A stretch of 32,000 bases of DNA from Candidatus Delongbacteria bacterium (GCA_020634015.1 JACKCN010000001.1:813114-845113); one strand, 5' to 3'. Shown: positions 3,718-32,000, counted from the first letter of the stretch. Translations and numbers: made by a program. Notes: generated from the letters alone by a model not told the origin.

Positions 3718-3784
3718 CTTCTGACCCTTTCATCCAGTGTGCGGATCAAGGCGTCCTTCGGGCACTTACCTGAAAGACAGATCC

Positions 3785-3810
3785 GCGCCCCCCGCAGTTG
3801 CGGGGGGCGC
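3785..3810 (-). terminator. GC-rich hairpin downstream of the 1804-aa gene (probable terminator)
   Basis: Perfect 11-bp stem gcgccccccgc / gcggggggcgc with a 4-nt loop, 17 nt after the stop at 3827-3829. The trailing minus-strand sequence GGAUCUGUCUUUC is only moderately U-rich. Confidence 0.5.
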
Positions 3811-3826
3811 GCACCTTGTTCGTGTG

Positions 3827-6800: not shown

Positions 6801-9241
6801 GGAGCGACGATCGTACCGCCAGCACCAGCACCCGCGCCATCCACATGCACGACCTTGTTCACCAGCACATTCTCGACGAAGGTGCCCTGCTCCACGTTGA
6901 TCAGGTCACCGGCATCCGCCGCATCCACACCGCGCTGGATCGAACCGGAAGCGGAGGTCACGAACAGTTCGCCGGTCTTGACGCGAACCAATCCCAGAGC
7001 GCCATTGTCCAGGGCATGGGTGATCTTGTCTTCGATGGCGTTGTTCTGGGAAAGACTGGCCACACCGCCTGTCAGACCATCAAACTCGACACCGGTGGCG
7101 TCCAGGTCGCCCGCATTTGACACGAGAGTGATGTAATCCCCACTCTGTCCACTGAAGTCCAGGTCGCTCAGGCTGGTGACGGATGCCGAGGAGTTTTCGA
7201 CCGAAAGGCCTGTCACACCACCGTTGGCGTTGACACCACTTCCAATGGCCAGTTCAACCGCAGCATGCGCCGTACTGAGCGGGCTGTCCAGCACACGAAT
7301 ACCTGTCTGGGCGTTGGTGATGGGCAGGGAGGATACGGTGGCATGAGCACCGCTGCCCGCATCACTGGAATAGCCTTCATAGTTGTTGAGGAACAGGCCC
7401 ATGTCCACATTGTCGATGCTGCCACCACTGATGGTGGGCATGCCCGAAGCAGCGACATTCCAGACCTGGATTCCGATGCTTCCCGGAACCGCACCTGAGC
7501 CATTCACCGTGTTTCCAGACACAGTGTGAGTCGCGTCACTCAACGAAGCCAGCAGGATTCCGTCCCACTTGGTTTCGTTCGCATCCCAGACCGCCGTGAT
7601 GTTGTTGTTGGAAAGGGTGAGGCCGCTGGGGCTCCCCGTGAACAGATTGTGGAAGATGCCGCGACGCCGCACGGACATTGTGTTGCCGGAAATCTCCTGA
7701 TAAATCGCTGCACCTGGATTCGCTGAATGGAAGTTTCCGGTCTGCACTCCCATGCGCACATTGCTCATGACATTGTTCGTGATATGCGCGTACTGACCGT
7801 TGTAGATCAGAACGGCACCACCCCAGAAATCGATTCCCGAAGCACCATCATAGGTTCCAAGATTCTGGAACAGATTGTCTTCAATCGTGTGTCCGGATGT
7901 GGCGGGGGCCGAATAGGAGGCCCCGAAGAGTGTCACACCGAAGTAGGTGAGATTCCTGAAGATGTTTTCCTGAATTGTCACATCATCAATGTTGTTCTCG
8001 TAGGTCGTGATCCCCTCGGCGCAATGCATGTCAGCACCGAAACCGTATCCGTTGCTGGCGAAAGCAGGGTTGTCGCCATCAAGCACGAAGCCGCGAATGC
8101 TTGTGCCGTCGGCCCCTGCAGCGATGTGAAAGATTTCTCCGGAAGACGGAGCATCCACGGCCGGGACGACGATCGCTTCTGCCACGCGTGGGCCGCCATT
8201 CGGGGAAATGCCATAGTTGGGTCCGCGCAGATCGACCGAAGTACCGACAATGACATTCTCAGCATAGATTCCGGCGTCCACTTCGATGATGTCACCACTG
8301 CTGGCTGCATCGATGGCGGACTGGATCGTGAAATGGTCCGTCAGTTGCGACACATTGTGAACGGGAGGCGGCGGTCCGAAAGTGATCGTGTTCCCCACGT
8401 TGTAGAAACTGCTTGTGAACTGATTGACATAGACACTGGCACCCGCATTGCCACTGCCCACACCGAACTGCACGCTGGTGACGATAGCGTCTTCATCGGC
8501 GATCAGGTCATAGACATCCTGGATGGTCTTGCTTCCAAAAAACGTGAGTCCGGAGGTGGACATATCCGACAGAGTCATGGGATTGCTGATGGTGCCCGCA
8601 AGAACCGTGCGATCGAAGAACCACCATTTGCCGGTATTGAAGTCAACCGTTTCCGTATGCCACAGCCCATCGGATGTGCCACCGTTGAGATTGCCGGGTT
8701 CGTAGATCAGCACTTTGTCCCAGGCATTCTCACCCGTGCGGGTGGACACGCCCGTACTGCCGAAGTCTGCGGTCTTGACGCCGAGCTTGACAGAGGGAGT
8801 CACACTGACCGTTCCATTGCCCATCCAGGAGTAACTCAGGGTCATTCCCGGACCGAATGCCACATCGCCGCTGCAGTGGCCACTGGCATCGTCCTTGCGA
8901 TGTGAAATCTGGCTCTTGCCGGATCCGTTCGCGCCAATCATCAGGTGTGTTGCACCGGTATAAGTCCCGGATGGGACGGTGCCGGGAGCCGGCCCGAATG
9001 AGATCTGAGCCAGAATATCCGCATCATGTGCCGACGTGCCGACCGCGGTGGCTTCCGGATCATCCGTCAGCGTGTCGCTGACCAGATTCGTGCCCGCTGG
9101 TGGCAAGCCAGTCCCATCCGCTCGAGTATCATCCGAATACCAGCCATTGTCTCCCAATGCGGAGACATTGACTTCAGCTGCGAAGACCGAACTCGCGCAC
9201 ATCGCGAGGCTCAGCAGCCAAATCCATTTTCCATGTCTCAT
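3827..9241 (-). CDS. giant T9SS-secreted surface protein: N-terminal beta-sandwich-like domain, two right-handed beta-helix (pectate-lyase/NosD-like) modules, cohesin-like/Ig/FN3/dockerin-like stalk, type-A sorting domain
   Basis: 1804-aa ORF with ATG at 9241, AAGGA SD and signal peptide MRHGKWIWLLSLAMCASSVFA. Two beta-helix entry motifs are present: FTIQSAIDAASSGDIIEVDAGIYAENVIV and SIQRGVDAADAGDLINVEQGTFVENVLV. Both are followed by long N/G/T/S-rich repeats. The C-terminal 661 aa are colinear with the neighbouring paralog. CTD: LEQNYPNPFNPTTTLRF...LASGVYYYRMLSGNFQDLKKMVLVK. Confidence 0.9.
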   Translation of the reverse strand: MRHGKWIWLLSLAMCASSVFAAEVNVSALGDNGWYSDDTRADGTGLPPAGTNLVSDTLTDDPEATAVGTSAHDADILAQISFGPAPGTVPSGTYTGATHLMIGANGSGKSQISHRKDDASGHCSGDVAFGPGMTLSYSWMGNGTVSVTPSVKLGVKTADFGSTGVSTRTGENAWDKVLIYEPGNLNGGTSDGLWHTETVDFNTGKWWFFDRTVLAGTISNPMTLSDMSTSGLTFFGSKTIQDVYDLIADEDAIVTSVQFGVGSGNAGASVYVNQFTSSFYNVGNTITFGPPPPVHNVSQLTDHFTIQSAIDAASSGDIIEVDAGIYAENVIVGTSVDLRGPNYGISPNGGPRVAEAIVVPAVDAPSSGEIFHIAAGADGTSIRGFVLDGDNPAFASNGYGFGADMHCAEGITTYENNIDDVTIQENIFRNLTYFGVTLFGASYSAPATSGHTIEDNLFQNLGTYDGASGIDFWGGAVLIYNGQYAHITNNVMSNVRMGVQTGNFHSANPGAAIYQEISGNTMSVRRRGIFHNLFTGSPSGLTLSNNNITAVWDANETKWDGILLASLSDATHTVSGNTVNGSGAVPGSIGIQVWNVAASGMPTISGGSIDNVDMGLFLNNYEGYSSDAGSGAHATVSSLPITNAQTGIRVLDSPLSTAHAAVELAIGSGVNANGGVTGLSVENSSASVTSLSDLDFSGQSGDYITLVSNAGDLDATGVEFDGLTGGVASLSQNNAIEDKITHALDNGALGLVRVKTGELFVTSASGSIQRGVDAADAGDLINVEQGTFVENVLVNKVVHVDGAGAGAGGTIVAPASGVAMALSAGADALNRVIVSNVRATGCTTGFVVSSHNTLDQVESISNSNYGLSLNSLVDLILTGSKFNNNTNAGLKLASAASADGLVVTNCEFNDSPNVGWYADANSGVEPILDNVSVSYTTFNGNLNKGIYTERLSNALFDHVTVENSGTGGSLNHRAGFDFNLKWRTDYDNIVVQNSTFTNCGTGDPNGAGLMIKARNDGGTYGSNPATVGSVTLTNLVVTGCGGTGAYSSGIRIGEASNTLYGVNTSPTSVTVSNCVISGNSAYGMRNATIGTVIDAENNWWGAGNGPLDSSDDTPSGLYNPTGSGNAVSDGIDYVPWIGDVFTATQTVSDNRIAVDDLGCPGTTTVTFGITPNFSMLPYFAYNFQISYPTSLVPIAYTNLYNPGGQGLTYTTGLNGPAPLLVDWVLYGPTASSTQTGDLFTVVFDGVADDGAASITLTLADFRQHDGNGFILLPVTESAATVVEVDGVSPSLLTAVFPDVNCGDSPNEFYQTNAEIQVTGISGSDNLDLARVQYSFDNANWTDAITGLSGLNHSGGLFTTVGALLVEGPRTLYVRYLDSVCNASNVESFGFVVDTGNPVAPTNLVATPDHGVVHLSWTAGSNYTSYKLYGKIRAGYPYYNDGIPGLPDDGLPPVGDPTTGVELASFSPADPTSFDHAVAARGVYDYQLVAYDCANNTPASSNIASSTNYFLGDWAAAGGLGLYDGSVCFNDVTFGMSVHYGETTDGSVKDEIDVAPTSDNSAFGLPGPDHRINFEDLIIMAINYRLSCGDSPLDAAPDMPAFDKDAMVASAATVGLNVLADETRLTLDGQLMGYSAFVRTDRSLSGVGCDNGLALSYAVPGGYMIDVVGQGELLDASSIVHLRFSGYGDINLESVDGRDMNNNAQSVSTTESGMGTLPTVYSLEQNYPNPFNPTTTLRFALPEAGQVELSVYNTLGQRVATVVNSTLQAGWHEVTFDGSSLASGVYYYRMLSGNFQDLKKMVLVK

Positions 9242-9312
9242 CTCTCTGTCCTTTCAGAACAAGTGGGTCACGGTCACGGCTTGTGCACGCGACCGATCCG
9301 AGGTTTCGGGTC

Positions 9313-11361
9313 TCAGCGTACCAGGCTGATCCGGCGTGCGCTGTGGAATTCTCCGGACTGCAGCTGCAGGATGTAGACTCCGGAGGCCAGCGGACCGGCG
9401 TCCAGGCGCAGGGTCCGCTCGCCCGCGGGCAGCTGGCCGCGGAACAGCTCCAGCACCTTGCGGCCCTGGATGTCGTACAGCACCAGAGACGCCGGGCCGT
9501 CTTCAGCCAGGCTGAAACGGACCATGGTATCCGGGTTGAAGGGGTTGGGGCTCACGGGGTACAGTGCGAAGGAAGCCGGTCTGGAGGAACTCCCCGAATC
9601 CAGGGTGGGCGTCACACGGGTGTTGGCGCGATCCCTGAGTTCGATTGAGAGAATACTCGGGGGTTGGGACACGGCCAGGCTGAGCAACCGGCCCGAAAGA
9701 TCACCTCCATCCAGCGAGACCAGAGCCAGTTCCTGACCGGCAGCGGAGGGTCGCACCAGCAGGGGCCAGGGTTCCGTGTCGGATTCGCTGATGGAGAGGC
9801 CATTCTCGAGAACCAGTCGGGCTCCGAGAATGCCGTTGCCGCTGAGCCAGAGGCTCCACTGGTTGCCCTCGGCGCGCCATTCCAGAGTGGCGGGAGCCTG
9901 GGTGTCGGCCAGTTCGAGGTCTGCGCCGGATGCCGCGCTCAGCGGCGGGCCGCTGAAGGAATAGTTCATGGCGAAAAGCATCAGGTCTTCGAAATCGATC
10001 ATGTTGTCCGTCATGGGAATGCCCAGAGGGCCATTGTCGTCGCTGGGGCCGATATCCGCCTGGTTGTAATACAGGAAGTCGCCATCGGCCGTGCTGTAGG
10101 TGTTGGAGAGGCGCACCAGGTCGGCCACATGCACCGTGCCGCTGTAAGGTGTGGCGAAATCGCCCAGGAAGTAGTTGGTGGCCCGGGCGCGCGAGTCGGG
10201 GCCGATGGGCGCGGGAATCAGCGCCAGGTCGACGGCGATGGCCACATAGCGATACACGTCACGCGGCACGACCGAATCCAGCAGACTGGTGCCCGTGCCG
10301 CTGTAGACCAGGGTGAAGCCCTTGGAAATCGCCTCGTCGCGGTCGGCGGGCCAGCTGTCCATCGGGGCGATGTCATCGTACTCCGGATAGGCGGAAATGC
10401 CGCTGTCGAACCAGCCCTGGCGCCAGATTTCCACATGGCTGAAGTCCAGGTCGCCGGGCAGGCCCCAGTCCAGCTGCACGCCCTGGTGACGGGGACTGGC
10501 CGTCAGGGCGCCCACGGGAAGAGGAGGCTGGTCGTCCAGCGTGAGCTGGTCGCTGAGGGTGACCGCATTGCCGTACTGATCGCGCAGGTCGAGGTACACG
10601 GTCTTGAGGCCGTTGCCCGCCGAGAGCACGAAACTGCCCGGCAGCGGCGGGGCCGTCCAGAGCGGCGAGGGATTGGGCGGCAGAGCCGGGTCTTCGGAGT
10701 TCACCAGAGAATGCAGGCTGCCGTCTCCTCCACTGAGAGACTGGGAGATTGTGGGCAACCATGTATACGTGTCATTGCCCGGAGGTGAAATGGCTTCGAG
10801 CTCGTAGAGGTAGCCCGATGGGGGCGTGGTGTCGACCGTCAGGGTCACGGGAGACGCGTTGTCGCAGGGAATCGATTGGTTCATTTCACCACGCAGCACA
10901 GGATTGGCGATGGTGATGCTGGCCGGACCACCCAGCAGGTCCAGTGCATGGAAGGTCTGGCTGAGGATCAGGACAGGGCCGGTGGGTGTCACACCCGCCT
11001 GCTGCCCCAGCAGCGTGCCAGTGAAGGTGCGCCCGTCCACCCCGTCGTAATGGGCGTAGAAGACCTCGCTGAGGCCATCGAAGAGCAGCCCGGGATCCGG
11101 CGCACCGACCGCTGCGAGCAACGCCGGATCCCACTGCAGGGTCAGGTCAACCAGGCGGATCGGCTCCTGCGCGGTAGCCGGGACATGGTTGAGATAGACG
11201 TCCAGTTCGTAGCTGTTGGCCGCCACTTCCCAGCGGGACCACAGGCCCAGAGTCGCGCCCGGGCTGGTGTCCAGAGAATAGGCGGACCAGGCGGGACTGC
11301 CGCAGAGCAGCACGGCCCAGAGGGTGGTCCGGATGTGTCGATTGCCATGTGTGCGCATCAT
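9313..11361 (-). CDS. T9SS-secreted stalk-only paralog (cohesin-like, FN3-like, dockerin-like, type-A sorting domain)
   Basis: The ORF track gives 9313-11397. I prefer the ATG at 11361/11358 (MMRTHGNRHIRTTLWAVLLCGSPAWSAYS, signal-like) because a GGGGA SD-like element precedes it and none precedes 11397. Cohesin-like: LTLQWDPALLAAV. FN3-like: LTASPRHQGVQLDWG. Dockerin-like: ATNYFLGDF...DIGPSDDNGPLGIPMTDNMIDFEDLMLFAMNY. CTD: LYPVSPNPFNPDTMVRF...LASGVYILQLQSGEFHSARRISLVR. Confidence 0.85.
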   Translation of the reverse strand: MMRTHGNRHIRTTLWAVLLCGSPAWSAYSLDTSPGATLGLWSRWEVAANSYELDVYLNHVPATAQEPIRLVDLTLQWDPALLAAVGAPDPGLLFDGLSEVFYAHYDGVDGRTFTGTLLGQQAGVTPTGPVLILSQTFHALDLLGGPASITIANPVLRGEMNQSIPCDNASPVTLTVDTTPPSGYLYELEAISPPGNDTYTWLPTISQSLSGGDGSLHSLVNSEDPALPPNPSPLWTAPPLPGSFVLSAGNGLKTVYLDLRDQYGNAVTLSDQLTLDDQPPLPVGALTASPRHQGVQLDWGLPGDLDFSHVEIWRQGWFDSGISAYPEYDDIAPMDSWPADRDEAISKGFTLVYSGTGTSLLDSVVPRDVYRYVAIAVDLALIPAPIGPDSRARATNYFLGDFATPYSGTVHVADLVRLSNTYSTADGDFLYYNQADIGPSDDNGPLGIPMTDNMIDFEDLMLFAMNYSFSGPPLSAASGADLELADTQAPATLEWRAEGNQWSLWLSGNGILGARLVLENGLSISESDTEPWPLLVRPSAAGQELALVSLDGGDLSGRLLSLAVSQPPSILSIELRDRANTRVTPTLDSGSSSRPASFALYPVSPNPFNPDTMVRFSLAEDGPASLVLYDIQGRKVLELFRGQLPAGERTLRLDAGPLASGVYILQLQSGEFHSARRISLVR

Positions 11362-11577
11362 GAAGTCCCCGTCAGGCGTTTCGATCCGGACCGACATCCG
11401 TGATCCAGGAATGGTCGAAGTGCCTCTCGTCAGGAGAGAGAGACCCCCCGATGGCCCGGATCGCGGGTCACAGACCAGACAGATTTTCAGTGGTCAAGGG
11501 CGAGGTCCGACAAGAACAGGTGGGCGGTGCGGGAGAGTGGTGCAGCCTTGCCGGATCAGTTTTTCAGTTCGTGAATC

Positions 11578-22574: not shown

Positions 22575-25235
22575 TTAGCTTTTCGTCGAATCCGCCAGCA
22601 GGCGCTCGGCCTCCGGGCGATTGAATGCGTGCTCGTCCCAGCTGTCCAGGGCGGCCGCCAGATGATAACCGGCATCCGCATCACGCCCGGCCGCAGCGAA
22701 GAGCTTGCCCAGCTGGAAGTGCGCATCCCCGTGGGCCGGAGCCAGGCTCAGCGCGCTCTGCAGCAGCTTGGTGGCCAGCGCCGGATCCTTCTTGACGTTC
22801 AGATGAATCAGCGCGCTGAAGTACAGGGCCTGGGGCTGCTGCGGGTTCTGGGTCAGGCTCTTCTGGAAACTGGTCAGCGCGCCATCGTGGCGCTCGCTGG
22901 TGTACTCCAGCAGCCCCAGCTCGTACCAGGCCTGGGGAAACACATCCTGCAGCTTGAGCGCCTTGCGGATGTACTCTTCGGCCTTGTCCTCACGGTCGGC
23001 TTCCTTGAGCGCGATGCCGTAGCGGAAATTGAACAGCGCATTGTTGGGCTGCATGTCCACGGCGTTGTGATACTCCTTGAGGGCCAGGCTGACCTCGTCG
23101 TTCTCCAGCATCAGTTCCGCCAGGCGGAAGCGCACGCTGGGATCGGAGGGCAAGCGCTCCTCGAGCTGGATCATGCAGTCGATGGCGTGATCCAGATCGC
23201 CGGCCGCCACATGGGCGTTGGCCAGCTCGTACAGCGCGCGGTGATTCTGGGCATCCTTGGCCACGATGGCTTCCAGCTGGCCGATGGCCTTGCCCCAGTC
23301 GCGACTGGTCATGTACGACAGCGCCAGCAGGTAGCGATCGTCCAGGTCGTCGGGATCGTCGGCCACGCTCTTCTCCAGCTCCTCGACCGAGGCGCTGGCC
23401 ATCGGGCGAATCTGCTGCAGGTGCTGGAGCCGCTGACTGGCTTCCGGGAACTCGGGACGCAGCTCGAGGGCCCGGTTGAGGGCGATTTCCGCATCGTCGT
23501 AGCGCCGCAGGTCCATGAGTGTCAGCGCACGGTAGAAGATGATCTGCACGTTCTCGGGGTCACGCTCGAGCTGGGCATCCAGCACGGCCAGACCATTCTG
23601 GTACTGCTGGTTGCGATTGTACAGCAGGGCCAGCCTCAGGCCGGGAGTGGCATCCTTGCCCGAGAACTCCAGCCAGCGCTGATACATGGCCACCGCGGGT
23701 TCCAGTTCCCCGAGCAGGTCATGAATCTGGGCCAGCGAGACGACGGGCTCCCTGGCCGTGGGGTCCTTTTCCAGGGCCGTGGTGAAGGCGGCCACCGCGT
23801 CCACGAAATGCCCCTTCTGCTGCAGGGCGGTGCCCAGCATGCCATGCAGGCGCGCATCCTCGGGGGCTTCCATCAACAGCTTGCGCAGTTCGTCGGCGGC
23901 CTCGTCCGCCTCGCGCAGCTGCAGATCGATCTGCACCAGACGATAGCGCGCGTTGAGATCACTGACGCCTTCCAGGCCGCGCTTCAGCTCGGCACGGGCA
24001 CGCATCAGCGCGTTGCCGTCGCGGCCGGCGGTCATCGAGAGCGCGAAGCCCAGGTTCAGGTGCAGGGCGTGGTTGTCGGGGTCGTCCTTGAGCAACTCTT
24101 CGATCAGGGGCAGGGCCTCGGCGGCGCGCTGACCCAGCATGTAGGCCTGCACCAGCTGGGCCTTGAGGGAGCGGTTTTCCGGATCCTTCTCCAGGGCCTC
24201 TTCAAGCTGACTGGAGCTGGGGCCCGCGGTCTCGCCACCCTGCTTCAGACGCTCGAGGGCCAACTGGGCCTCACGCAGGCCGGGCTGCAGTTCCAGAGCC
24301 CGTTCGACCAGTTTCACGGCGATGTCCGTCTCACCCTGCTCCTGATAGGCCATGCCTTTCAGATAGTGCAGGCCGGCATCGTTGGGGGCCAGAGCCAGTG
24401 CCTCGTCGAAGAGGGCGATGGCCGCGTCGTATTCCTTCTTGTGGCCGGCCAGCAGCATGGCCAGACGTCCCAGCACGGGCGGCTGGTCGCGCTTCAGCTC
24501 CAGGCTTTCGCGGTAGCTGGTTTCAGCGGTATCCCGGTCGCCGCCCTGCTCCTGCATCTGGCCCAGATTGAACAACAGGGCCGCGTCGTTGCCATTGAGT
24601 TCGATGGCCTTCTGCAACAGTGCGGCACCCTGGCCGTACTCCTGCTTCTGGGCATGGATCAGGGCGCGGTAGTTGAGCACATCCCGGTTGCCGGGTTGTT
24701 TCTCCAGCAGGGAATCCAGACGCTGGGCGGCTTCGTCGGCCTTGCCCGTATTCAGCAGCAGAATCGCGAACTGGAAGTTGCCGCTGAGATCATCGGGGCT
24801 GATCTCCAGACCGGTGCGGAAGGCGGCAATGGCCTTGTCGGCCTGGTTGCGGGCCTGAAAGGTCATGGCCAAGGCGAAGTGCAGGGTGGCACTGCGCTCG
24901 GTCGGCGTCAGGCGCAGAGCGTGGCGGTAACTGACCTCGGCCTTGTCGTACTGCTTGAGCAGCATGTGGCACTGGCCATGATGGAACCAGGCCTCGGCCA
25001 CATCGTCCTTGATGGACAGGCTCTTGTCAATCTCTTCGAGCGCGTGGCTCACTTCGCCACGGCCGAGATAGGCCACGCCCAGGGTGTAAAGCACTTCCGG
25101 ATCGTGGGGAGCATATTTCAGGCTCTTGCGATATCCAGCAATGACCTTCTGCAGGTCGGGATTGGTGCTGCGGTGAATCTTGAGGGTTTCGGTGAACCAC
25201 TGCCGGGCTTTCTGGGCGTCGGAAATGCCGCTCAT
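22575..25235 (-). CDS. large tetratricopeptide-repeat (TPR) protein
   Basis: 886-aa ORF made of repeated 34-aa helical units along its whole length (A..Y..AL...P....A...LG..Y...G....A...). GGAG SD upstream of the ATG at 25235. No signal peptide is evident. Confidence 0.9.
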   Translation of the reverse strand: MSGISDAQKARQWFTETLKIHRSTNPDLQKVIAGYRKSLKYAPHDPEVLYTLGVAYLGRGEVSHALEEIDKSLSIKDDVAEAWFHHGQCHMLLKQYDKAEVSYRHALRLTPTERSATLHFALAMTFQARNQADKAIAAFRTGLEISPDDLSGNFQFAILLLNTGKADEAAQRLDSLLEKQPGNRDVLNYRALIHAQKQEYGQGAALLQKAIELNGNDAALLFNLGQMQEQGGDRDTAETSYRESLELKRDQPPVLGRLAMLLAGHKKEYDAAIALFDEALALAPNDAGLHYLKGMAYQEQGETDIAVKLVERALELQPGLREAQLALERLKQGGETAGPSSSQLEEALEKDPENRSLKAQLVQAYMLGQRAAEALPLIEELLKDDPDNHALHLNLGFALSMTAGRDGNALMRARAELKRGLEGVSDLNARYRLVQIDLQLREADEAADELRKLLMEAPEDARLHGMLGTALQQKGHFVDAVAAFTTALEKDPTAREPVVSLAQIHDLLGELEPAVAMYQRWLEFSGKDATPGLRLALLYNRNQQYQNGLAVLDAQLERDPENVQIIFYRALTLMDLRRYDDAEIALNRALELRPEFPEASQRLQHLQQIRPMASASVEELEKSVADDPDDLDDRYLLALSYMTSRDWGKAIGQLEAIVAKDAQNHRALYELANAHVAAGDLDHAIDCMIQLEERLPSDPSVRFRLAELMLENDEVSLALKEYHNAVDMQPNNALFNFRYGIALKEADREDKAEEYIRKALKLQDVFPQAWYELGLLEYTSERHDGALTSFQKSLTQNPQQPQALYFSALIHLNVKKDPALATKLLQSALSLAPAHGDAHFQLGKLFAAAGRDADAGYHLAAALDSWDEHAFNRPEAERLLADSTKS

Positions 25236-25482
25236 GGCATGTCTCCATCAGGCTAAGGATCCGGCTGCCGCAGGGCATTCCTGCTTGCGCCAGAATTGTC
25301 GTTGAGGTGTCAGCAAACGGCGAAAGTAGGAATTGACGCGGCCCGGGCCAAGGAAAGGCTTGAGACAGGAGGAGTGAGGTCCGGGGATCGCAACGTGCCC
25401 GGACGGAGTATCTGCCCCGGAATTCGCCACCTTGAGCGCCTCACGGCAGATGACAGGCAACCCGGATCATTCAGGAATCAGC

Positions 25483-26172
25483 ATGCAGACAGACTCTCAG
25501 AAGCCCCAGGGGTCCAGCGTCAGCAAACACCTGCGCACCTATCTGGCCTCGGGAATCCTGGTCCTGGTCCCTCTGGGCCTGACGGTGTTCGTGTTCAAGC
25601 TGCTCTTCACCTCGCTCTCGGGCATCATGCTTCCCGTGCTGCGCCCCCTGCTGCGAGATCTGCCCGAATGGGCTCTGGTGAGCCTGGCCTTCTTCTCGAT
25701 GCTGATCATCGTCTACATCGTGGGTCTGGTGGCGGCGCACATGATCGGGCGTCGTGTGATCCAGCTTGGCGAAACCTTGCTGATGCGCGTGCCCTTCATC
25801 AAGACGGTCTATTCGGCCTCGAAGCAGGTGGTGGACTCGATCTCCTCGCCCGGGGCGTCGGCCTACAAGGCGGTGGCCCTGGTCGAGTACCCCCTGCCGG
25901 GCACACTGGCGCTGGCCTTCGTCACCGGCAGCACGCGCACTTCGGATGACCGGGTCTACATCACGGTGTTCGTGCCCACCACGCCCAATCCCACATCCGG
26001 CTTCATGCTCTTCGTGCCCGAAGCCGACGTGCGCATCCTGAAGATGAGCGTCGAAGATGCGGTCAAGACCATCTTCTCCGGCGGCATGCTCGGGCCTCCG
26101 CGCCTGGACTACCGCAATGCGCCGCTGGCGCACACGGAACCGGAGAGCGACAGGGAACTTCCTCCCGCCTGA
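25483..26172 (+). CDS. DUF502 family membrane protein
   Basis: Two N-terminal TM helices (YLASGILVLVPLGLTVFVF; ALVSLAFFSMLIIVYIVGLVAA), RVPFIKTVYSASKQV, and the hallmark VPTTPNPTSGFMLFVP. The track start at 25432 is a TTG. The ATG at 25483 has an AGGAA SD-like element, so the start remains uncertain. Confidence 0.85.
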   Translation: MQTDSQKPQGSSVSKHLRTYLASGILVLVPLGLTVFVFKLLFTSLSGIMLPVLRPLLRDLPEWALVSLAFFSMLIIVYIVGLVAAHMIGRRVIQLGETLLMRVPFIKTVYSASKQVVDSISSPGASAYKAVALVEYPLPGTLALAFVTGSTRTSDDRVYITVFVPTTPNPTSGFMLFVPEADVRILKMSVEDAVKTIFSGGMLGPPRLDYRNAPLAHTEPESDRELPPA

Positions 26173-26209
26173 GCGCGGCCATCGCCCGGTTTTCCCCGGG
26201 ACGCCGGAC

Positions 26210-26638
26210 CTAGCGTTCCGTATCCAGGCGGCGGGGTTCGGGGCGCGGCCGGCGACCATAGCCCACCAGGGTGCGCCGTGTGTGATCCAGGCCGTTCAGC
26301 CTGGCCCGCAGTCCTCCCAGTTCCTCGCCAAGCTGCCCGCCCAGCCTGTCTTCCATGGTCGAGATCCGTGCCGACCGGGTGGCCAGTTCGGCGCGCAACC
26401 AGAGTCGGTGTGGATGGGCCTCGGGCCAGCGGGCACGCAGTCCCTCGACACACTCGGCCACGGCATGGCCCAGCTCCTCGCGGCGGTTCAACAGGGCGTC
26501 CAGATGCTCGAGATTGTCATCCCCGCCGCCCAGCAGGCGCAGCAGATTCTCCCACTCGTCCAGCAGCCTGAACAGTCGGTCCTCGCCCGCGGATTCCGTC
26601 TCGGAAGCGGCAAGGCCCTGCGGGTGTGCAGCGCTCAT
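26210..26638 (-). CDS. hypothetical coiled-coil protein, last gene of the glycosyltransferase operon (weak FliT/FlgN-like chaperone resemblance)
   Basis: 142 aa. The ATG overlaps the upstream stop (ATGA at 26635-26638). The sequence is helical and heptad-like: RLFRLLDEWENLLRLL...LDALLNRREELGHAV...LRARLNGLDHTRRTLVGYGRR. It has good GC3 in this frame. The functional call is weak. Confidence 0.6.
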   Translation of the reverse strand: MSAAHPQGLAASETESAGEDRLFRLLDEWENLLRLLGGGDDNLEHLDALLNRREELGHAVAECVEGLRARWPEAHPHRLWLRAELATRSARISTMEDRLGGQLGEELGGLRARLNGLDHTRRTLVGYGRRPRPEPRRLDTER

Positions 26639-27258
26639 TCGACGGTCACTTTCGAGAGGGTCTCGATCAACGGTTCAATGGCCACCGCCCAGCTTTCCAG
26701 GCCTTCGCTCAACTCGTACTCCAGCAGGTCGGCCAGCAGAATCAGGTCACGATTCTCCTGGGCCGAAATCACTTCGTCCAGCAGCGGCTCGAAGGTGCCC
26801 GAGAACCCGGTGATCACCACGGCCAACTCGCCGGGCAGGTAGCGGGTGAGAATGCGCCCCATCTGGGTCACGCCCGACTTGAGCAGCTCGAAGTTGTCGA
26901 TGATCCGGAACAGCACCAGGGTGGCCGTGGCTTCATCGCCGATGCGAAGCTGATCGGCACAGGTGGCCAGATCACGGCGCAGGGGCGCCACCATTTCCGC
27001 GGTCACCTTCAGGGATTCGGCCACCAGTTCCTCGGGACGGTGCACGCCCAGTTCCAGCGACTGCGGTTTGCCCAGTCCGTCAATGGCGTTCAAGTCACGC
27101 CCGGTGACATCCTCGCCGTTCACGCGCACGTGGGTGATCAGCAGGCCGCTGTCACGCATGGCCAGCGCCACCTGCTCCATCAGGGACCGGTAATCCAGCC
27201 CACCCAGCGGCACGCCGGAAGGCAGGGCCCAGGGTTCTCCGTTCACGATGATCTGCAT
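26635..27258 (-). CDS. hypothetical protein (possible beta-grasp-like N-terminus + helical C-terminal domain)
   Basis: 207 aa. GGAGGA SD 5 nt upstream of the ATG at 27258, which lies inside the 3' end of the upstream gene (16-nt overlap). The N-terminus MQIIVNGEPWALPSG...ITHVRVNGEDVTG is ThiS/MoaD-like in pattern only. I recognise no family. Confidence 0.7.
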   Translation of the reverse strand: MQIIVNGEPWALPSGVPLGGLDYRSLMEQVALAMRDSGLLITHVRVNGEDVTGRDLNAIDGLGKPQSLELGVHRPEELVAESLKVTAEMVAPLRRDLATCADQLRIGDEATATLVLFRIIDNFELLKSGVTQMGRILTRYLPGELAVVITGFSGTFEPLLDEVISAQENRDLILLADLLEYELSEGLESWAVAIEPLIETLSKVTVE

Positions 27259-28982
27259 GGTTCCTCCAGGGGACGGGCATCCTTGCGGCTGCCGGTCGGG
27301 GTTGAATAGGTCGTTTTCAGTGTATCCAGAATCTCGCGCACCCGATGTCGGTACAGGTGCCTGCTCAAAACCGTCTCACGGGACTCGCGTGCCAGGCGGC
27401 TCCAGAGCGGACGATCACGCAGCAGCCGGTTGCTCAGCTCCAGGGCCTCTTCGGGCGTGTGCCAGGCCAGACAGTCCCGCCCGGGAGTGAAGAGCAGCTC
27501 CAGGTCTTCCTGGGCGTCACCCAGCACCACGCTGCCACACAGGGGCACATCAAAGGCGCGCTGGTTCAGCGCCGTGGGCATCTGGCGGCTGGTGCTGTTC
27601 AGGTTCACCCGGCAGCCCCCATAATGCAGGGGCAGCGCTCCGTAGTAGTCCAGGCCCGGCAGCAGGCGCAGGGCCGGCTCCAGGTTCTGCCAGCCGCGGT
27701 CACCACAGACCACGAAATCGCGCTGGGCAAAGGCACGCACCAGGTCCAGGCGGTCCCGCTGGGTGCCTTCCAGTACCAGCAGGCTCTGCAGTGTGCGCCA
27801 GCCGCGCTCGTCCAGACCCGAAGCCAGCAGGGGAATCCGCAGGCGCTGTTCTTCCAGGAAGGTCTCCACGGGAATCCGGCGCCCATTGAGGACCCAGTCT
27901 TCCAGCAGGCGTTCGTACTCGCGACGCTGGGCCGTGTTCAGCCCCAGCCGGATGCTCCACTTGGAGACGGCCTCGACATTGGAGCCCCCCACGAAACTGC
28001 AATCGCGCTGGCTGCCGGCCGCGCCCCGTGTGGCGAACTCGCCATTGCCCGCCAGCGGCAACCACTGGACCGAACCAAAGGGCAGCTGCTGCATCGCGGG
28101 CAGCCAGTGGCGCTCCCAGACGAAGAGATGCGTGTTGCCCGTGGCCACCCCGTGATGCCCGTCGAGAATGTAGACGGGGCTGTCCACGTACCATACCGCC
28201 ACGGGTATGCGCAGTTTCTCCAGAATCGCCGCCAGCCGTCCTTCTGCATCGAAGCCGATGTGGTTCACGCAGAACACCAGGTCCGGGCGGAAGTCACCCA
28301 GCTTCTCCAGCAGCCGGTTGAGGAAGTCCTCGTCGATCTTCAATTCCTGATGCACGACCGTGGGCGCGATCCGGTTGCCTTCGCGGCTCAGCGGCACTTC
28401 CAGCACCTCGCAGCCCTGCTCGCGGAAGGCGCGGCTGCATTCGCGCAGCAGGAAGTAGCCACTCTGCAGCACCAGCACGCGCCGCCCCTGCCAGCTGCGT
28501 GTGCGCAGACTGCCCAGGCGCGAAGGATTCAGCCCGGGGCTGAAGTGCTCCAGCAGCCCGGCAGCCCAGCCGGGAAACGCCGCGCGATAGGCAGTGTTCA
28601 CCACCAGGTACAGATCCGGATATCCGCGTTCCATCTGTTCGCGCGTGATGGCATCCACCAGCTGCATGGGTGTTCCGTGCAGGAGGCGTACGCCGCTCGG
28701 GGGCCGCTGCTCGCCGGAAATCCGCGCGCCGGTGCGAGGCGGTTCCAGCTGGAGCACGCCCTGCCAGTCACCGCGGGAGGCCTCCTCGGCCAGGTACCCC
28801 AGCCCGCCGCCCAGCAGCAGCAACATGGCTGGCTGCTGCACACCCAGGCCTGCCAGCAGCGTGCGAGCCTCGCGACGCGGGTCCAGCGGGCTGTGCACGG
28901 CCAGCCTGCGCTCCCCGCAGCTCAGCCAGAGAGTCGCATCACCCCGGCGCGAGGGGCCGCTTTCGAATGCCCATTCACTCAT
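27243..28982 (-). CDS. CgeB-like glycosyltransferase (DUF3880 + Glyco_trans_1_2-like) with Maf/DUF115-like N-terminal region
   Basis: 579 aa. N-terminus: LAVHSPLDPRREARTLLAGLGVQQPAMLLLLGGGLGYLAEEA, a motility-accessory-factor-like pattern. Middle: RPDLVFCVNHIGFD...IPVAVWYVDSP. C-terminus: CSFVGGS...VNLNSTSRQMPTALNQRAFDVPLCGSVVLGD...SRHLYRHRVREIL, typical of CgeB/Glyco_trans_1_2. It has an 8-nt overlap with the upstream gene. Confidence 0.8.
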   Translation of the reverse strand: MSEWAFESGPSRRGDATLWLSCGERRLAVHSPLDPRREARTLLAGLGVQQPAMLLLLGGGLGYLAEEASRGDWQGVLQLEPPRTGARISGEQRPPSGVRLLHGTPMQLVDAITREQMERGYPDLYLVVNTAYRAAFPGWAAGLLEHFSPGLNPSRLGSLRTRSWQGRRVLVLQSGYFLLRECSRAFREQGCEVLEVPLSREGNRIAPTVVHQELKIDEDFLNRLLEKLGDFRPDLVFCVNHIGFDAEGRLAAILEKLRIPVAVWYVDSPVYILDGHHGVATGNTHLFVWERHWLPAMQQLPFGSVQWLPLAGNGEFATRGAAGSQRDCSFVGGSNVEAVSKWSIRLGLNTAQRREYERLLEDWVLNGRRIPVETFLEEQRLRIPLLASGLDERGWRTLQSLLVLEGTQRDRLDLVRAFAQRDFVVCGDRGWQNLEPALRLLPGLDYYGALPLHYGGCRVNLNSTSRQMPTALNQRAFDVPLCGSVVLGDAQEDLELLFTPGRDCLAWHTPEEALELSNRLLRDRPLWSRLARESRETVLSRHLYRHRVREILDTLKTTYSTPTGSRKDARPLEEPCRSS

Positions 28983-30690
28983 GGCAGATGGGGTCCAGTT
29001 CCTGAGTCCGGGTCACGGGTTCCAGCTCACGGATCACCGTGTCCAGCATGTTCGCCAGCTCGAGGGCCCGGTGGGCCAGCGTGTCGTAGATCCGGCCCAT
29101 GGCGCGATTGGTGCGTTCGAAATCCGGTTCCTGGTCCAGTTCCTCCTTGTCAAAGCGGAAGAGCACGGCCAGCGGGCGCAACCAGGTGTGCGACATCTCG
29201 CGCTTGAACAGGGTGGCGTCAATCTCGATCACCCGGCTTGACACGCGCTCCAGCAGTTTCAGACTGGGTGCAGAGTTGGAGAGGTCCAGTGCCACTTCAC
29301 CGGTCAGGGCATGCCCTTCGCCGGCCAGCTGGATCACATCGTCCAGAATCTCGCGGGCCTGATTGCAGCGATGCAGCAACAGAGCGGGATCCGGGGCGAC
29401 GGCCAGCCGCGCGCGCAGACCGGCCAGCTCATCGACCAGCGAAAGCGCCAGGGGCTCGCGGACACCCGCGCGCAGCTCGGTCTTCCAGAGCCTGCGGTAA
29501 CACAGGCTGAAGATCGCTTCCGGAGACAGCTGCTCCTGCAGCAGCGGCACCAGGGTCTGGAAGCCTTCGGCATCGCGTTCGCAACGGAAGACATGCACTC
29601 GCTCGGCGTCGGGCCAGGTCTCCGGCACGCTGCCGTCCAGTTGCATCCGGGCGGCGGCGGCCACCGCGGCCGGAGTGATCCAGTCACGGCAGTTGATGTG
29701 CGGGCATTCCACATGGTGGCTGCAGGGCGAACAGGCGATGCGCGGCTGCAGCACCAGCGTTCCGGGCAGGTAGGCCGCAGTCTCCTCGGGCAGGGCGGTA
29801 GCCAGGAAGAGGCTCACCACGGGAGTCCCCATGGCGGCCGCGATGTGCATGGTGCCGGTGTCGTTGCTGATCAGCAGGTCGGCGCGAGTGCAGAGTGCAC
29901 TGAGCTGCGCCAGGTTGGTCTGGCCGCTCAGGTCGTGATACACCAGCTCGGGAGCCAGAGTCATCAACGAGGCGGCCAGTGGCATTTCCTTCTGGGTGCC
30001 ACAGAGCAGGAACCGCGCCCCGCACTCTTCGGCCAGAATGCGCGCGCAGCGGGCGAAACTTTCCAGCGGCCAGCGGCGGTTGTCGCGGCTGGCTCCCAGC
30101 TGCAGCATCACCAGGGGGCCCGGTCCGTCCAGCGGCAAGTCGGCGGCCCAGCGGCGGGCCTCGTCACCCGGTTCGAGGCAGAGTGCCTGACCGACGCCCT
30201 TGGGCAGATTGCCGATGCGGCGGTAGATGTCCACCAGATTGAAGGAATTGAAACCCCGGTTGGCGGTCACGTTGAAGAAGTACTTGACCCAGTCGTGCTT
30301 GATGTCGCGCTGGCCCGTGCGGTGCACGCTGAGGCCACGGATCTCGCCCCGCGCCACCAGCTGGCTCAGCAGGGCGCTGTCATGGCTGTGGGTCAGGTTG
30401 ATCACCAGATCCCAGGACCGCTGGCCAAGAGCCCGCACGAAATTGCGATGCCAGATCACCGCATCACCGAAGGTCCAGCCCGGTGCCATCAGGCGGCTCA
30501 CACTCTCGTCCTGTTCGTAGACCAGTACCTCGTCCACGGCGGGAATCTGCTGGGCCACTCCGCGGAAGGCGTCGATCACCAGCAGCGCGATGTGCGCATC
30601 TGGATGCTGCTGGCGCAGACCCTGCAACAGCGGCGAGGTCTGCACGATGTCGCCCATGCGGGTCAGGTTGATCACCAGGATCTCAGCCAC
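28975..30690 (-). CDS. GT9 (heptosyltransferase-like) glycosyltransferase fused to an unassigned ~215-aa C-terminal helical domain
   Basis: 571 aa with a GTG start at 30690. GT9 motifs: ILVINLTRMGDIVQTSPLL, MLQLGASRDNRRWP, LLISNDTGTMHIAAAMGTPVVSLF. The GT9 fold ends near aa 350. Residues ~355-571 have no recognisable family. It has 8-nt overlaps at both ends. Confidence 0.85.
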   Translation of the reverse strand: MAEILVINLTRMGDIVQTSPLLQGLRQQHPDAHIALLVIDAFRGVAQQIPAVDEVLVYEQDESVSRLMAPGWTFGDAVIWHRNFVRALGQRSWDLVINLTHSHDSALLSQLVARGEIRGLSVHRTGQRDIKHDWVKYFFNVTANRGFNSFNLVDIYRRIGNLPKGVGQALCLEPGDEARRWAADLPLDGPGPLVMLQLGASRDNRRWPLESFARCARILAEECGARFLLCGTQKEMPLAASLMTLAPELVYHDLSGQTNLAQLSALCTRADLLISNDTGTMHIAAAMGTPVVSLFLATALPEETAAYLPGTLVLQPRIACSPCSHHVECPHINCRDWITPAAVAAAARMQLDGSVPETWPDAERVHVFRCERDAEGFQTLVPLLQEQLSPEAIFSLCYRRLWKTELRAGVREPLALSLVDELAGLRARLAVAPDPALLLHRCNQAREILDDVIQLAGEGHALTGEVALDLSNSAPSLKLLERVSSRVIEIDATLFKREMSHTWLRPLAVLFRFDKEELDQEPDFERTNRAMGRIYDTLAHRALELANMLDTVIRELEPVTRTQELDPICHE

Positions 30691-31954
30691 GGGAGGCCCC
30701 CTCGAGCATCTGGTCGATCTTCTTGCTGCGAGCCCATTCCTGAATGCGGCCCATGTAGAGGAACAGGCGCTCGGTCTCGCCCAGTTCGCCCTCGAGCTGG
30801 CTCACGTGACGCGCGATCGAGGACACCGTGTGATCCACATCGGGTGGCAGCTGGGCCAGCCAGGCGGCCAGTTCCGGATCGGCCTCGGCCACCAGGCCCG
30901 CTTCCTTGCGCGGAGCGGCGGTGGGGAACCAGTCCGCGCCCAGCTGATGCGCCAGCTCCAGGAACTCGGCCATTCGCACCTTGAAGGTGTGACGGGCCAG
31001 CACTTCGCGCCGCCCCGCCTCGGCCATCTCCCGGGCCTGCCCGGGATGCTCCAGGTACCAGGTCACCAGGTCGCGCAGTTCGTTGGTGTCACGGTAGGTG
31101 GCCAGATGCTTGCCGGGAACCAGCAGTTCCGGCAGCAGGCTGCGCTGGTCCACCAGCTGGAATCCGCCGCAGGCCAGGATGTCGAAGACACGCGGGTTCA
31201 CGAAGTCGCCATCGGGATCGACGCCCGCGTGATAGGTGGAACTGTGCAGGTTCAGATTGATCCGGCTGTTGGAGAAGATCCAGCGGTTGCGGGCCTCGTC
31301 CGTGCGCCGACCTCCGTCCTGGATCATGTCGAAGGCCGGGTGCAGCGGGTTCCAGTCGGAGCCCCAGATCTTCAGCCCGTGGTCACGCAGTTCCAGGAAC
31401 GCGGTCTGGCGATTGTGATACCCGGCGCCCACGAAACTGAGCGGGATGCTCTCCTCGGGCGTTCCAGGCTCGGGAAAGTGGACCGAGGGGTCGCTGCAGA
31501 GCGGCAGGTAGCGCACGGGGTTTCCCGAGAGCGCGGCCAGCTGCTCGTGGAAGCGGCCCTTCTGGATGGTGAGAAACAGGTCGAAATGCCCATGCAGGGC
31601 CTTCCAGTAGGGCATGGTCTCGTAGTCCTCGACGAACCAGAAGGCCGTGCGTGCTCCCTGCTGGCGCAGCTGCTCGCTGACCCGCGCGCTCACCGGGCTC
31701 TGGGCCAGCGCGAACACCAGGTCGGGCCGGAAGCGCGAGGCTTCCAGCAGCACCAGCTGACCCATCAGCTCTTCGAATCCGGAGAGCAGACTGCGGCCCT
31801 TGAGATGCCGGTCGCCCGCGTTCAGCAAGGTGCGATGAGCCTGCTCCATGCCGTCCAGTGAGACACTCTGCACCGTGTGCCCCAGCGCCCGAAAGGCCTC
31901 GGCCGCGTGACGCGCCAGCGGCAATGAACCGCCATACACCGGCTCCACGACCAT
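30683..31954 (-). CDS. CgeB-like glycosyltransferase (DUF3880 + Glyco_trans_1_2-like)
   Basis: 423 aa from the ATG at 31954. Motifs: RIMVVEPVYGGS, RPDLVFALAQSP, TAFWFVEDYETMPYW, SFVGAGYHNR, INLNLHSS...VNPRVFDILACGGFQLVD...ARHTFKVRMAEFLE. The reading frame stays open from 31954 to the window edge (32000), so a longer N-terminus or an in-frame upstream gene cannot be excluded. Confidence 0.8.
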   Translation of the reverse strand: MVVEPVYGGSLPLARHAAEAFRALGHTVQSVSLDGMEQAHRTLLNAGDRHLKGRSLLSGFEELMGQLVLLEASRFRPDLVFALAQSPVSARVSEQLRQQGARTAFWFVEDYETMPYWKALHGHFDLFLTIQKGRFHEQLAALSGNPVRYLPLCSDPSVHFPEPGTPEESIPLSFVGAGYHNRQTAFLELRDHGLKIWGSDWNPLHPAFDMIQDGGRRTDEARNRWIFSNSRINLNLHSSTYHAGVDPDGDFVNPRVFDILACGGFQLVDQRSLLPELLVPGKHLATYRDTNELRDLVTWYLEHPGQAREMAEAGRREVLARHTFKVRMAEFLELAHQLGADWFPTAAPRKEAGLVAEADPELAAWLAQLPPDVDHTVSSIARHVSQLEGELGETERLFLYMGRIQEWARSKKIDQMLEGASRG

Positions 31955-32000
31955 GATCCGCAGACGGCGTTCGCTGGCACGCAGCTGCCCCAGCTGGACC

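Follow-up and report, generated by a model that had tools for sequence, protein, structure and literature searches.

To our knowledge, flagellin is glycosylated by only a few known types of enzyme: Maf, FlmG and certain lineage-specific glycosyltransferases (GTs) of the GT2 and GT4 families. How these enzymes recognize flagellin has begun to emerge only recently, from work on TPR domains and the small protein GlfM. Here we analyze an operon of soluble GTs from Candidatus Delongbacteria bacterium, the 3′ half of which lies in a stretch of 32,000 nucleotides (nt) of genomic DNA (GCA_020634015.1 JACKCN010000001.1:813114-845113; G000:C1:813114-845113 in our numbering) that is referred to below as the window. 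The original prediction, made from the sequence of the window, saw in its last five genes a dedicated module for the glycosylation of a secreted filament or surface protein. DNA beyond the window edge was also read from the genome, and the operon as a whole probably O-glycosylates flagellin in the cytoplasm before flagellar export, with an adaptor/chaperone pair of its own.

In Shewanella oneidensis, Maf-2 needs the cis-encoded protein GlfM, a four-helix bundle of 89 residues with FliS/FliT-like traits, to bind flagellin; F24/R25 of GlfM are conserved and D77 in its last helix is essential (Unay, Kint and Viollier, bioRxiv 10.1101/2023.12.03.569772). FlmG of Caulobacter crescentus is a bipartite soluble enzyme that combines a flagellin-binding TPR part with a GT-B part and acts in the cytoplasm (eLife 2020, PMC7591256). 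The BAHT enzymes TibC/AAH, which are heptosyltransferase-like GT-B proteins with a Cys4 metal finger, also glycosylate proteins in the cytoplasm (eLife 2014, PMC4358343). The locus described here resembles the Maf-2/GlfM system in that soluble GTs without a flagellin-binding domain of their own are encoded beside a small protein with a four-helix bundle, with nonulosonic-acid genes nearby. It differs in that the constant neighbor of this small protein, a member of DUF8042, is a long GT9 enzyme across phyla, in that two genomes carrying the system are without Maf, and in that a second, FliT-like protein accompanies DUF8042.

Positions past 32000 are given as window-equivalent coordinates, in which the numbering of the window is extended upstream; the next 20 kb upstream are locus L002, where a position equals the window position minus 30000. 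The genes originally numbered 1, 2 and 3 and the 207-aa and 142-aa genes are g05, g04, g03, g02 and g01 here, respectively. Long GT9 enzymes of the g04 type are abbreviated GT9L, and CgeB-like enzymes of the g05 and g03 types Cg5 and Cg3. The operon contains the following genes, listed from its 3′ end:

26210..26638, minus strand: g01, 142 aa, helical FliT-family-like protein, encoded last in the operon.
26635..27258, minus strand: g02, 207 aa, DUF8042 (PF26154), proposed flagellin adaptor.
27243..28982, minus strand: g03, 579 aa, Maf-N-like domain (about residues 1-165) followed by a DUF3880/Glyco_trans_1_2 CgeB-like GT-B part.
28975..30690, minus strand: g04, 571 aa, long GT9 with a GT-B core, a Cys4 knuckle and a C-terminal extension.
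30683..32000 in the window, minus strand: g05, 438 codons at the 3′ end of a 589-aa gene, Maf-N-like domain and CgeB-like GT.
Upstream of g05, minus strand: 432-aa MptE-like/Maf protein (E 2.3e-26), short, with no C-terminal domain.
Upstream string, minus strand: 713-aa CgeB-like enzyme with TPR repeats, GT domain first, TPR second.
Upstream string, minus strand: 433-aa GT9, the second GT9 of the operon.
Upstream string, minus strand: 1198-aa GT2 protein with TPR repeats.
Upstream string, minus strand: DegT-type aminotransferase gene.
Upstream string, minus strand: NeuB-like gene (g11), divergent, 52 bits.
First gene of the operon, minus strand: short Maf_flag10_N fragment.

The five minus-strand open reading frames (ORFs) of the window and the predicted lengths of their overlaps were confirmed: they overlap by exactly 4 (ATGA), 16, 8 and 8 nt, start with ATG or GTG, and each upstream stop is TGA. 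Overlaps this short are usual in operons. They show tight packing, which is compatible with translational coupling but no proof of it; of the tight co-translation originally read from them, the packing holds and the coupling is unproven. The starts of g01 to g04 match ortholog alignments. The g05 ORF (L002:683-2452) runs past the window edge to window-equivalent 32452 and encodes 589 aa. Its orthologs align from residue 1, and the start first assigned to it at 31954 (423 aa) is therefore an internal Met. The further genes suspected past the edge are present: seven same-strand genes, joined by overlaps or tiny gaps, lie upstream of g05, and the five genes of the window form the 3′ half of an operon with twelve genes and a length of roughly 16.7 kb (minus strand, window-equivalent about 42900 down to 26210). 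For this genome, the annotation is thus corrected to an operon of twelve genes rather than five and to a g05 of 589 aa. GT genes of four families (Maf/MptE-like, CgeB-like, GT9 and GT2) are packed into one string with the Maf-N fragment and the DegT-like and NeuB-like genes, and the 432-aa gene is the sole MptE-like gene in the genome. Past the twelve genes, MobA-like and CO-dehydrogenase-type genes look like a different unit.

No plausible membrane segment was detected in any of the twelve products, with a top 19-residue hydropathy of at most 1.9 compared to 2.7 for a DUF502 membrane protein used as control. Furthermore, the twelve-gene string contains no gene for a flippase, a polymerase, an ABC/Wzx/Wzy protein or an initiating phosphoglycosyl transferase. 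The lack of export genes noted for the window thus extends to the whole operon, and upstream of the window there is no lipopolysaccharide (LPS) or exopolysaccharide locus with export machinery, as had been considered, but soluble GTs, Maf and NeuB/DegT-like genes. Sugar-biosynthesis genes are absent inside the window, as had been stated, but the DegT-type and NeuB-like genes lie upstream in the same operon. In addition, a canonical NeuB gene (282 bits) with a CTP_transf_3 gene is located at G000:C1:468142-472136, ~345 kb from the operon; this NeuB/CMP-transferase pair is probably the main nonulosonic-acid pathway.

The g04 enzyme was correctly recognized as a GT9 with an extra domain. Its PF01075 match (E 2.3e-30, 106 bits) covers residues 83-326 and is followed by ~230 residues with no Pfam match at E ≤ 10. 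In the AF2 model (pLDDT 89, pTM 0.89), a GT-B core (residues 1-352) is followed by a beta-hairpin (365-382) and long helices (390-565). Fold and family are those of WaaC, WaaF and the Veillonella protein 3TOV (CAZy GT9, PF01075): the closest folds found by Foldseek are WaaF (1PSW, E 2.7e-15), 3TOV and WaaC, and a profile match to 3TOV has an E of 1e-43. Unlike these proteins, g04 has about 230 extra C-terminal residues and is encoded in a flagellin-linked operon of soluble enzymes. It also scores below the NCBIfam equivalog cut-offs for LPS heptosyltransferases, with 103 vs 185 bits for TIGR02193, 95 vs 135 bits for TIGR02195 and 82 vs 170 bits for TIGR02201, and as judged from sequence g04 is not an equivalog-level WaaC, WaaF or WaaQ.

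The Cys4 knuckle of g04 (residues 320-334), situated behind the GT9 C-lobe, has the pattern CxPC-x5-C-x4-C, invariant in 16 orthologs across phyla. The genome has three shorter GT9 genes on contig 10, and since the Cys4 cluster is also found in two of these three LPS-type paralogs and in the second GT9 of the operon, it is nothing unusual for GT9 and probably a metal site with a structural role across the family. The distinctive part of g04 is the C-terminal extension, for which a word-index search returned close relatives only, none with a name or a Pfam family. A TibC/BAHT-like reading of g04 was rejected: LPS-type paralogs have the Cys4 cluster as well, the N-terminal beta-barrel of TibC is missing, the g04 profile does not match TibC at E ≤ 1, and in the fold search TibC appears at rank 33 (E about 7e-6, TM 0.51), behind WaaF, WaaC and epimerases. 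A literature search combining flagellin glycosylation and heptosyltransferase yielded nothing on GT9 flagellin enzymes.

The CgeB-like assignments were equally sound. PF13524 (Glyco_trans_1_2) is matched by g05 at E 6e-32 to 1.1e-31 and by g03 at E 2.5e-23, with a weak match to DUF3880. The same domain is found in the 713-aa upstream protein and in CgeB, a spore maturation GT of Bacillus subtilis. Unlike in CgeB, the domain is fused in g03 and g05 to a Maf-type N-domain, and the host belongs to a flagellated, presumably non-sporulating lineage of the FCB group. Both proteins open with this module of ~160 residues, which carries the pattern hS..(D/N)P.REA and then GxGxG. Direct Pfam scans of the two N-domains at E ≤ 10 gave no match, and one distant ortholog gave a faint match to PF20157. 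When ortholog profiles were aligned with the N-domain of the neighboring Maf-like protein (hhalign), probabilities of 97.8% (E 1.1e-12) for g03 and 99.1% (E 1.7e-18) for g05 were obtained; by this profile comparison, the N-termini of g03 and g05 are homologous to the PF20157-type Maf N-domain. The MptE-like catalytic domain PF01973 is not matched in g03 or g05 even at E 10, and the genes of the window are therefore not Maf enzymes. Hence, of the Maf/DUF115-like N-terminus originally proposed, the Maf N-domain is retained and the MptE/DUF115 catalytic domain is not. Two complete genomes, G001 (locus L020) and G196 (locus L065), carry the Cg5-GT9L-Cg3-DUF8042 block and no MptE-like/Maf gene anywhere, so Maf is dispensable for the kit. 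The 713-aa protein joins a CgeB-like GT-B part and TPR repeats as FlmG does, a likeness in domain make-up. It differs from FlmG in having the GT first and the TPR second, and many enzymes occur together here, most of them with a Maf-N domain instead of TPR. No literature was found on flagellin glycosylation combined with CgeB.

The protein encoded by g02 and its relatives carry the precomputed Pfam assignment PF26154.2 (DUF8042); the Pfam library used for direct scans was without PF26154, so g02 gave no match there. The Atlas matches of g02 are DUF8042/TP0873_N clusters (score 0.93, TM 0.75), and a DUF8042 profile search of 1.8 billion representatives retrieved 3861 clusters at E ≤ 1e-3. No paper on TP0873 was found. 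The AF2 model, built with ten orthologs (pLDDT 85), consists of a beta-grasp domain (residues 1-73) and a four-helix bundle (75-203) with helices at 75-106, 109-140, 143-168 and 172-203. Invariant residues are R105 at the end of helix 1 and, in the last helix, the LADLLEYE motif with D177 and E180. Like GlfM, DUF8042 therefore ends in a four-helix bundle with an invariant acidic motif in the last helix, here beside Maf or a long GT9; unlike GlfM (89 aa), it has 207 aa and an added beta-grasp domain. R105 and D177..E180 recall R25 and D77 of GlfM, a suggestive parallel for which GlfM was compared by description only. A Foldseek search with the g02 model reached a best E of 0.04, all matches being four-helix bundles of generic or designed type or sensor domains of chemoreceptors, with no FliS or FliT among them. 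The helical half alone reached Atlas scores of 0.61 or lower, which is uninformative.

The small protein g01 has no Pfam match of its own, and a word-index search gave close relatives only, without names or Pfam families. Its Atlas features are FliT/FlgN-like. Positional orthologs of 116-139 aa are encoded behind DUF8042 in class relatives and share the C-terminal motif R..L..Y...RF/L-D. A hidden Markov model of the family, built from class orthologs only, matches the small proteins of loci L078 (E 5.6e-10) and L091 (E 1.1e-7), with 0 matches in a reversed database. These two proteins score 38.1 and 29.8 bits on Pfam FliT (PF05400), above the cut-off, and the class ortholog of locus L089 scores 20.2 bits (E 1e-3), below it. 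The FliT/FlgN-like nature claimed for the terminal small protein is thus supported by transitive homology, which points to g01 as a divergent FliT-family protein. Like FliT and FlgN (PF05400, PF05130), it is small and all-helical (family about 120-145 aa) and found in a flagellar context; unlike these, it belongs to a family with a separate C-terminal motif, R..L..Y...RF/L-D, whose members are coupled to DUF8042 and GTs.

A three-chain model of a 280-aa flagellin with g02 and g01 scored 0.42-0.43 in three runs, compared to 0.00, 0.00 and 0.06 for controls, and the score collapses when DUF8042 is swapped out. Of 80 solved complexes, 58 reach the mark used for complex scores, as do 2 of 110 mismatches; at scores of 0.60 or lower, it is reached by only 7 of the 80 and by both mismatches. 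In the model, the terminal helices of flagellin (residues 17-43 and 255-280) contact the beta-grasp domain and helices 1-2 of g02 and residues 46-110 of g01. This gives weak support to a docking of the flagellin termini on the g01/g02 pair.

All 8 family genomes and 2 of the 3 class genomes encode a homolog of the 207-aa protein. Gene order was compared in eight loci of relatives, six from the family and two from the class. The order DegT-GT2-GT9-[CgeB+TPR]-[Maf]-Cg5-GT9L-Cg3-207aa-small-[TPR] is kept in all eight with small losses: G001 is without Maf, G006 is without Cg3 (g03 orthologs are present in 7 of the 8 loci examined), and the class-level relatives are without the downstream TPR gene. 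The genes are thus co-conserved as a block, as had been expected. In G006 (L028), DUF8042 lies directly behind GT9L, and an 865-aa ORF is found between the small gene and the TPR gene. The DNA also recurs in activated-sludge metagenomes.

Beyond these relatives, 401 genomes sampled across bacteria were searched for DUF8042 and Flagellin_N, which were found in 65 and 177 genomes, respectively. Flagellin is present in 62 of the 65 DUF8042 carriers vs 115 of the 336 others, counts that are not phylogenetically independent and for which no P value is given. GT9L-DUF8042 is present in G175:C16 (L079) and G328:C60, two genomes without a Flagellin_N match. In addition, 100 DUF8042 loci were surveyed, 20 distant genome loci and 80 named loci, the latter including the Bdellovibrionia loci L097, L098 and L107. 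Flagellin is encoded within 10 kb in 39 of the 100 (8 of the 20 distant and 31 of the 80 named loci). Of the 80 named loci, 51 have a same-strand long GT9 gene upstream of DUF8042, among them many Desulfovibrionaceae, such as Nitratidesulfovibrio and Maridesulfovibrio (loci L120, L130 and L162), with the minimal set GT9L-DUF8042-small protein; in the distant loci, DUF8042 adjoins a long GT9 in about half and Maf in four. A GT9 had been thought unusual in such a context; it is instead the most constant partner of DUF8042 across phyla.

In at least six other lineages, orthologous blocks are flanked by flagellin genes on one or both sides. Same-order blocks with flagellin occur in Zixibacteria (L091), Calditrichaeota (L093) and three metagenome-assembled genomes (L092, L094 and L095), with the order GT9-CgeB/TPR-Cg5-GT9L-Cg3-DUF8042-(small protein) in four of the five and GT2 replacing CgeB/TPR in L094. 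Flagellin genes lie on both sides of the block in L092, L093 and L094, one lies upstream in L091, where the contig ends after the block, and one downstream in L095. In G196, the order is GT2-GT9-Cg5-GT2-GT9L-Cg3-DUF8042-flagellin. Among metagenome contigs, one reads DUF8042 - 134-aa gene - flagellin (L029), another Maf - GT2+TPR - GT4 - GT9 (523 aa) - CgeB - DUF8042 - 145-aa gene with CgeB+TPR ahead (L030), and a third Maf - CgeB - GT9 (546 aa) - DUF8042 (L031). In Nitrospina loci, DUF8042 is encoded beside flagellin, and no GT was found there by the models used.

Taken together, we infer that flagellin is the substrate of the operon. In the proposed mechanism, DUF8042 and the FliT-like protein would hold the terminal helices of unassembled flagellin and present it to the enzymes with Maf-type N-domains, i.e. 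the short Maf and the two CgeB-like proteins, with the Maf-N domains or the GT9 extension possibly docking onto the flagellin-adaptor complex. The protein-sugar bond would be made by one of the Maf-N enzymes or by the long GT9, after which the other GT9, GT2 and CgeB-type enzymes may extend the glycan. A nonulosonic or amino sugar could be supplied by the NeuB-like and DegT-like genes of the operon together with the distant NeuB/CMP-transferase pair. The module with a chaperone or adaptor that was originally proposed is upheld in substance and sharpened from a filament or surface protein to flagellin, given the flagellin genes around orthologous blocks, the co-occurrence of DUF8042 and flagellin (62 of 65 carrier genomes) and the relation of the last gene to Pfam FliT members; its boundaries were drawn too narrowly.

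Several observations weigh against flagellin glycosylation by this operon. Flagellin is a predicted substrate and is not known to be glycosylated in this lineage. The genome encodes three ~280-aa flagellins and has one weaker Flagellin_N match that is possibly hook-associated, and these flagellins lie on contig 4 and ~830 kb off on contig 1, with no flagellin or other flagellar gene near the operon; a flagellin gene nearby, for which a search had been suggested, is missing here, and flagellin genes flank the orthologous blocks in other phyla. The counts of co-occurrence suffer from the phylogenetic dependence mentioned above, and DUF8042 occurs without a flagellin match in G175 and G328, which belong to one genus, and in G189, where a weak match was obtained; from G175 and G328, DUF8042 may not be strictly flagellar. 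Maf is not an obligatory first enzyme, as G001 and G196 illustrate. The score of the modeled flagellin complex sits in the weak band, and the 0.00 obtained for GT9L modeled with DUF8042 speaks neither for nor against an interaction. As a separate observation, two GT4-type genes and one GT2 gene are located at C1:1404-4884 (L062), on the opposite strand and about 4-7 kb from the flagellin gene at C1:8480-9562, with a Tex-like gene in between.

A more far-reaching proposal is that the triad of GT9L, DUF8042 and the FliT-like protein constitutes a Maf-independent class of flagellin GTs, present in at least eight phyla including culturable Desulfovibrionaceae, in which GT9L or the Maf-N CgeB-like enzymes would bond the sugar to adaptor-held flagellin. 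We regard this as possible, albeit doubtful at present.

Among the alternatives, the one that survives best retains flagellin as the substrate and gives the last two genes another role, as ordinary export chaperones or regulators, i.e. a FliT-type protein for the FliD cap and a partner, that share the operon with the enzymes. Relatives of the small protein indeed score on Pfam FliT and FlgN, and the DUF8042 N-domain family is named after TP0873. The Nitrospina loci, in which DUF8042 is encoded beside flagellin without a recognized GT, and the model of GT9L with DUF8042, which gave no support for an interaction, fit this view as well. However, DUF8042 is encoded just behind the long GT9 in most of the named loci and beside Maf in others, often without a flagellar gene nearby, for example in Nitratidesulfovibrio. 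Such adjacency to GT9 or Maf in loci without flagellar genes is better explained by a partner of the enzymes than by a general chaperone. The three-chain model, moreover, docks the flagellin termini on the pair itself, and we consider it unlikely that the two proteins are export factors.

A second alternative, that the operon modifies another protein, such as the hook, the cap, hook-associated proteins or a surface protein, appears very improbable. FliT serves FliD in enterobacteria, the operon of this genome has no flagellin gene in cis, and large cargo genes of the type IX secretion system (T9SS) are located at 313-11397 of the same window. These cargo genes are not neighbors of the block in relatives, however, and it is specifically flagellin genes that flank the orthologous blocks. 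Furthermore, the enzymes are all cytoplasmic, and a flippase/oligosaccharyltransferase, as needed for a periplasmic or T9SS route, is missing. The least probable reading is a locus that makes polysaccharide or modifies the LPS core, with GT9 transferring heptose to lipid-linked acceptors. WaaF and WaaC are indeed the nearest folds to this GT9, and polysaccharide loci typically contain GT2 and GT-B enzymes, but all twelve products are soluble, initiating phosphoglycosyl transferase and export genes are absent, GT9L stays below all equivalog cut-offs, LPS synthesis could be served by the three shorter GT9 genes on contig 10, and the locus holds Maf, Maf-N domains, DUF8042 and a FliT-like gene, with orthologs linked to flagellin.

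Two further genes are located downstream of the operon:

25432-26172 of the window, plus strand: DUF502 membrane-protein gene, convergent with the end of the operon.
22575..25235, minus strand: 886-aa TPR protein with TPR Pfam matches, a conserved neighbor of the operon within the family and a possible accessory.

The TPR gene lies directly 3′ of the small gene in each of the five family loci long enough to include it (44-64% identity) and in further family loci, and is not found downstream of the small gene in the class-level relatives G009 and G010. In the present genome, the DUF502 gene separates g01 from the TPR gene; compared with the family relatives, in which the TPR gene lies directly behind the small gene, it therefore looks like a local insertion or rearrangement.

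At the other end of the operon, outside the window, a well-placed, perfect sigma-54 core (TGGCAC-N5-TTGC) is located at L164:18527-18542 on the minus strand (window-equivalent 42913-42928). An ATG with GGTGGAG in front of it follows 41 nt downstream, and the first gene of the operon, the Maf-N fragment, would actually start there. Sigma-54 matches are not above chance in the 20-kb stretch overall (14 vs 13 expected), and the site was not found in the stretches of eight relatives, some of which stop short of the first gene; a sigma-28 consensus has no match in the operon. In a wastewater metatranscriptome, five short, near-identical contigs map to g01, g02, g05, g07/g08 and the NeuB-like gene g11 (window-equivalent 26148-26328, 26821-27050, 31333-31541, 35526-35787 and 42244-42493). 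These are compatible with low expression, with DNA carry-over possible, and are not evidence of co-transcription.

The kit of GT9, CgeB-type enzymes, Maf-type domains and a DUF8042/FliT-like pair is widespread and experimentally unstudied. It travels with flagellin genes, in some genomes without Maf. If confirmed, its role would add a new enzyme family for protein O-glycosylation and assign a function to DUF8042, and the minimal triad of culturable sulfate reducers would provide a testable model.

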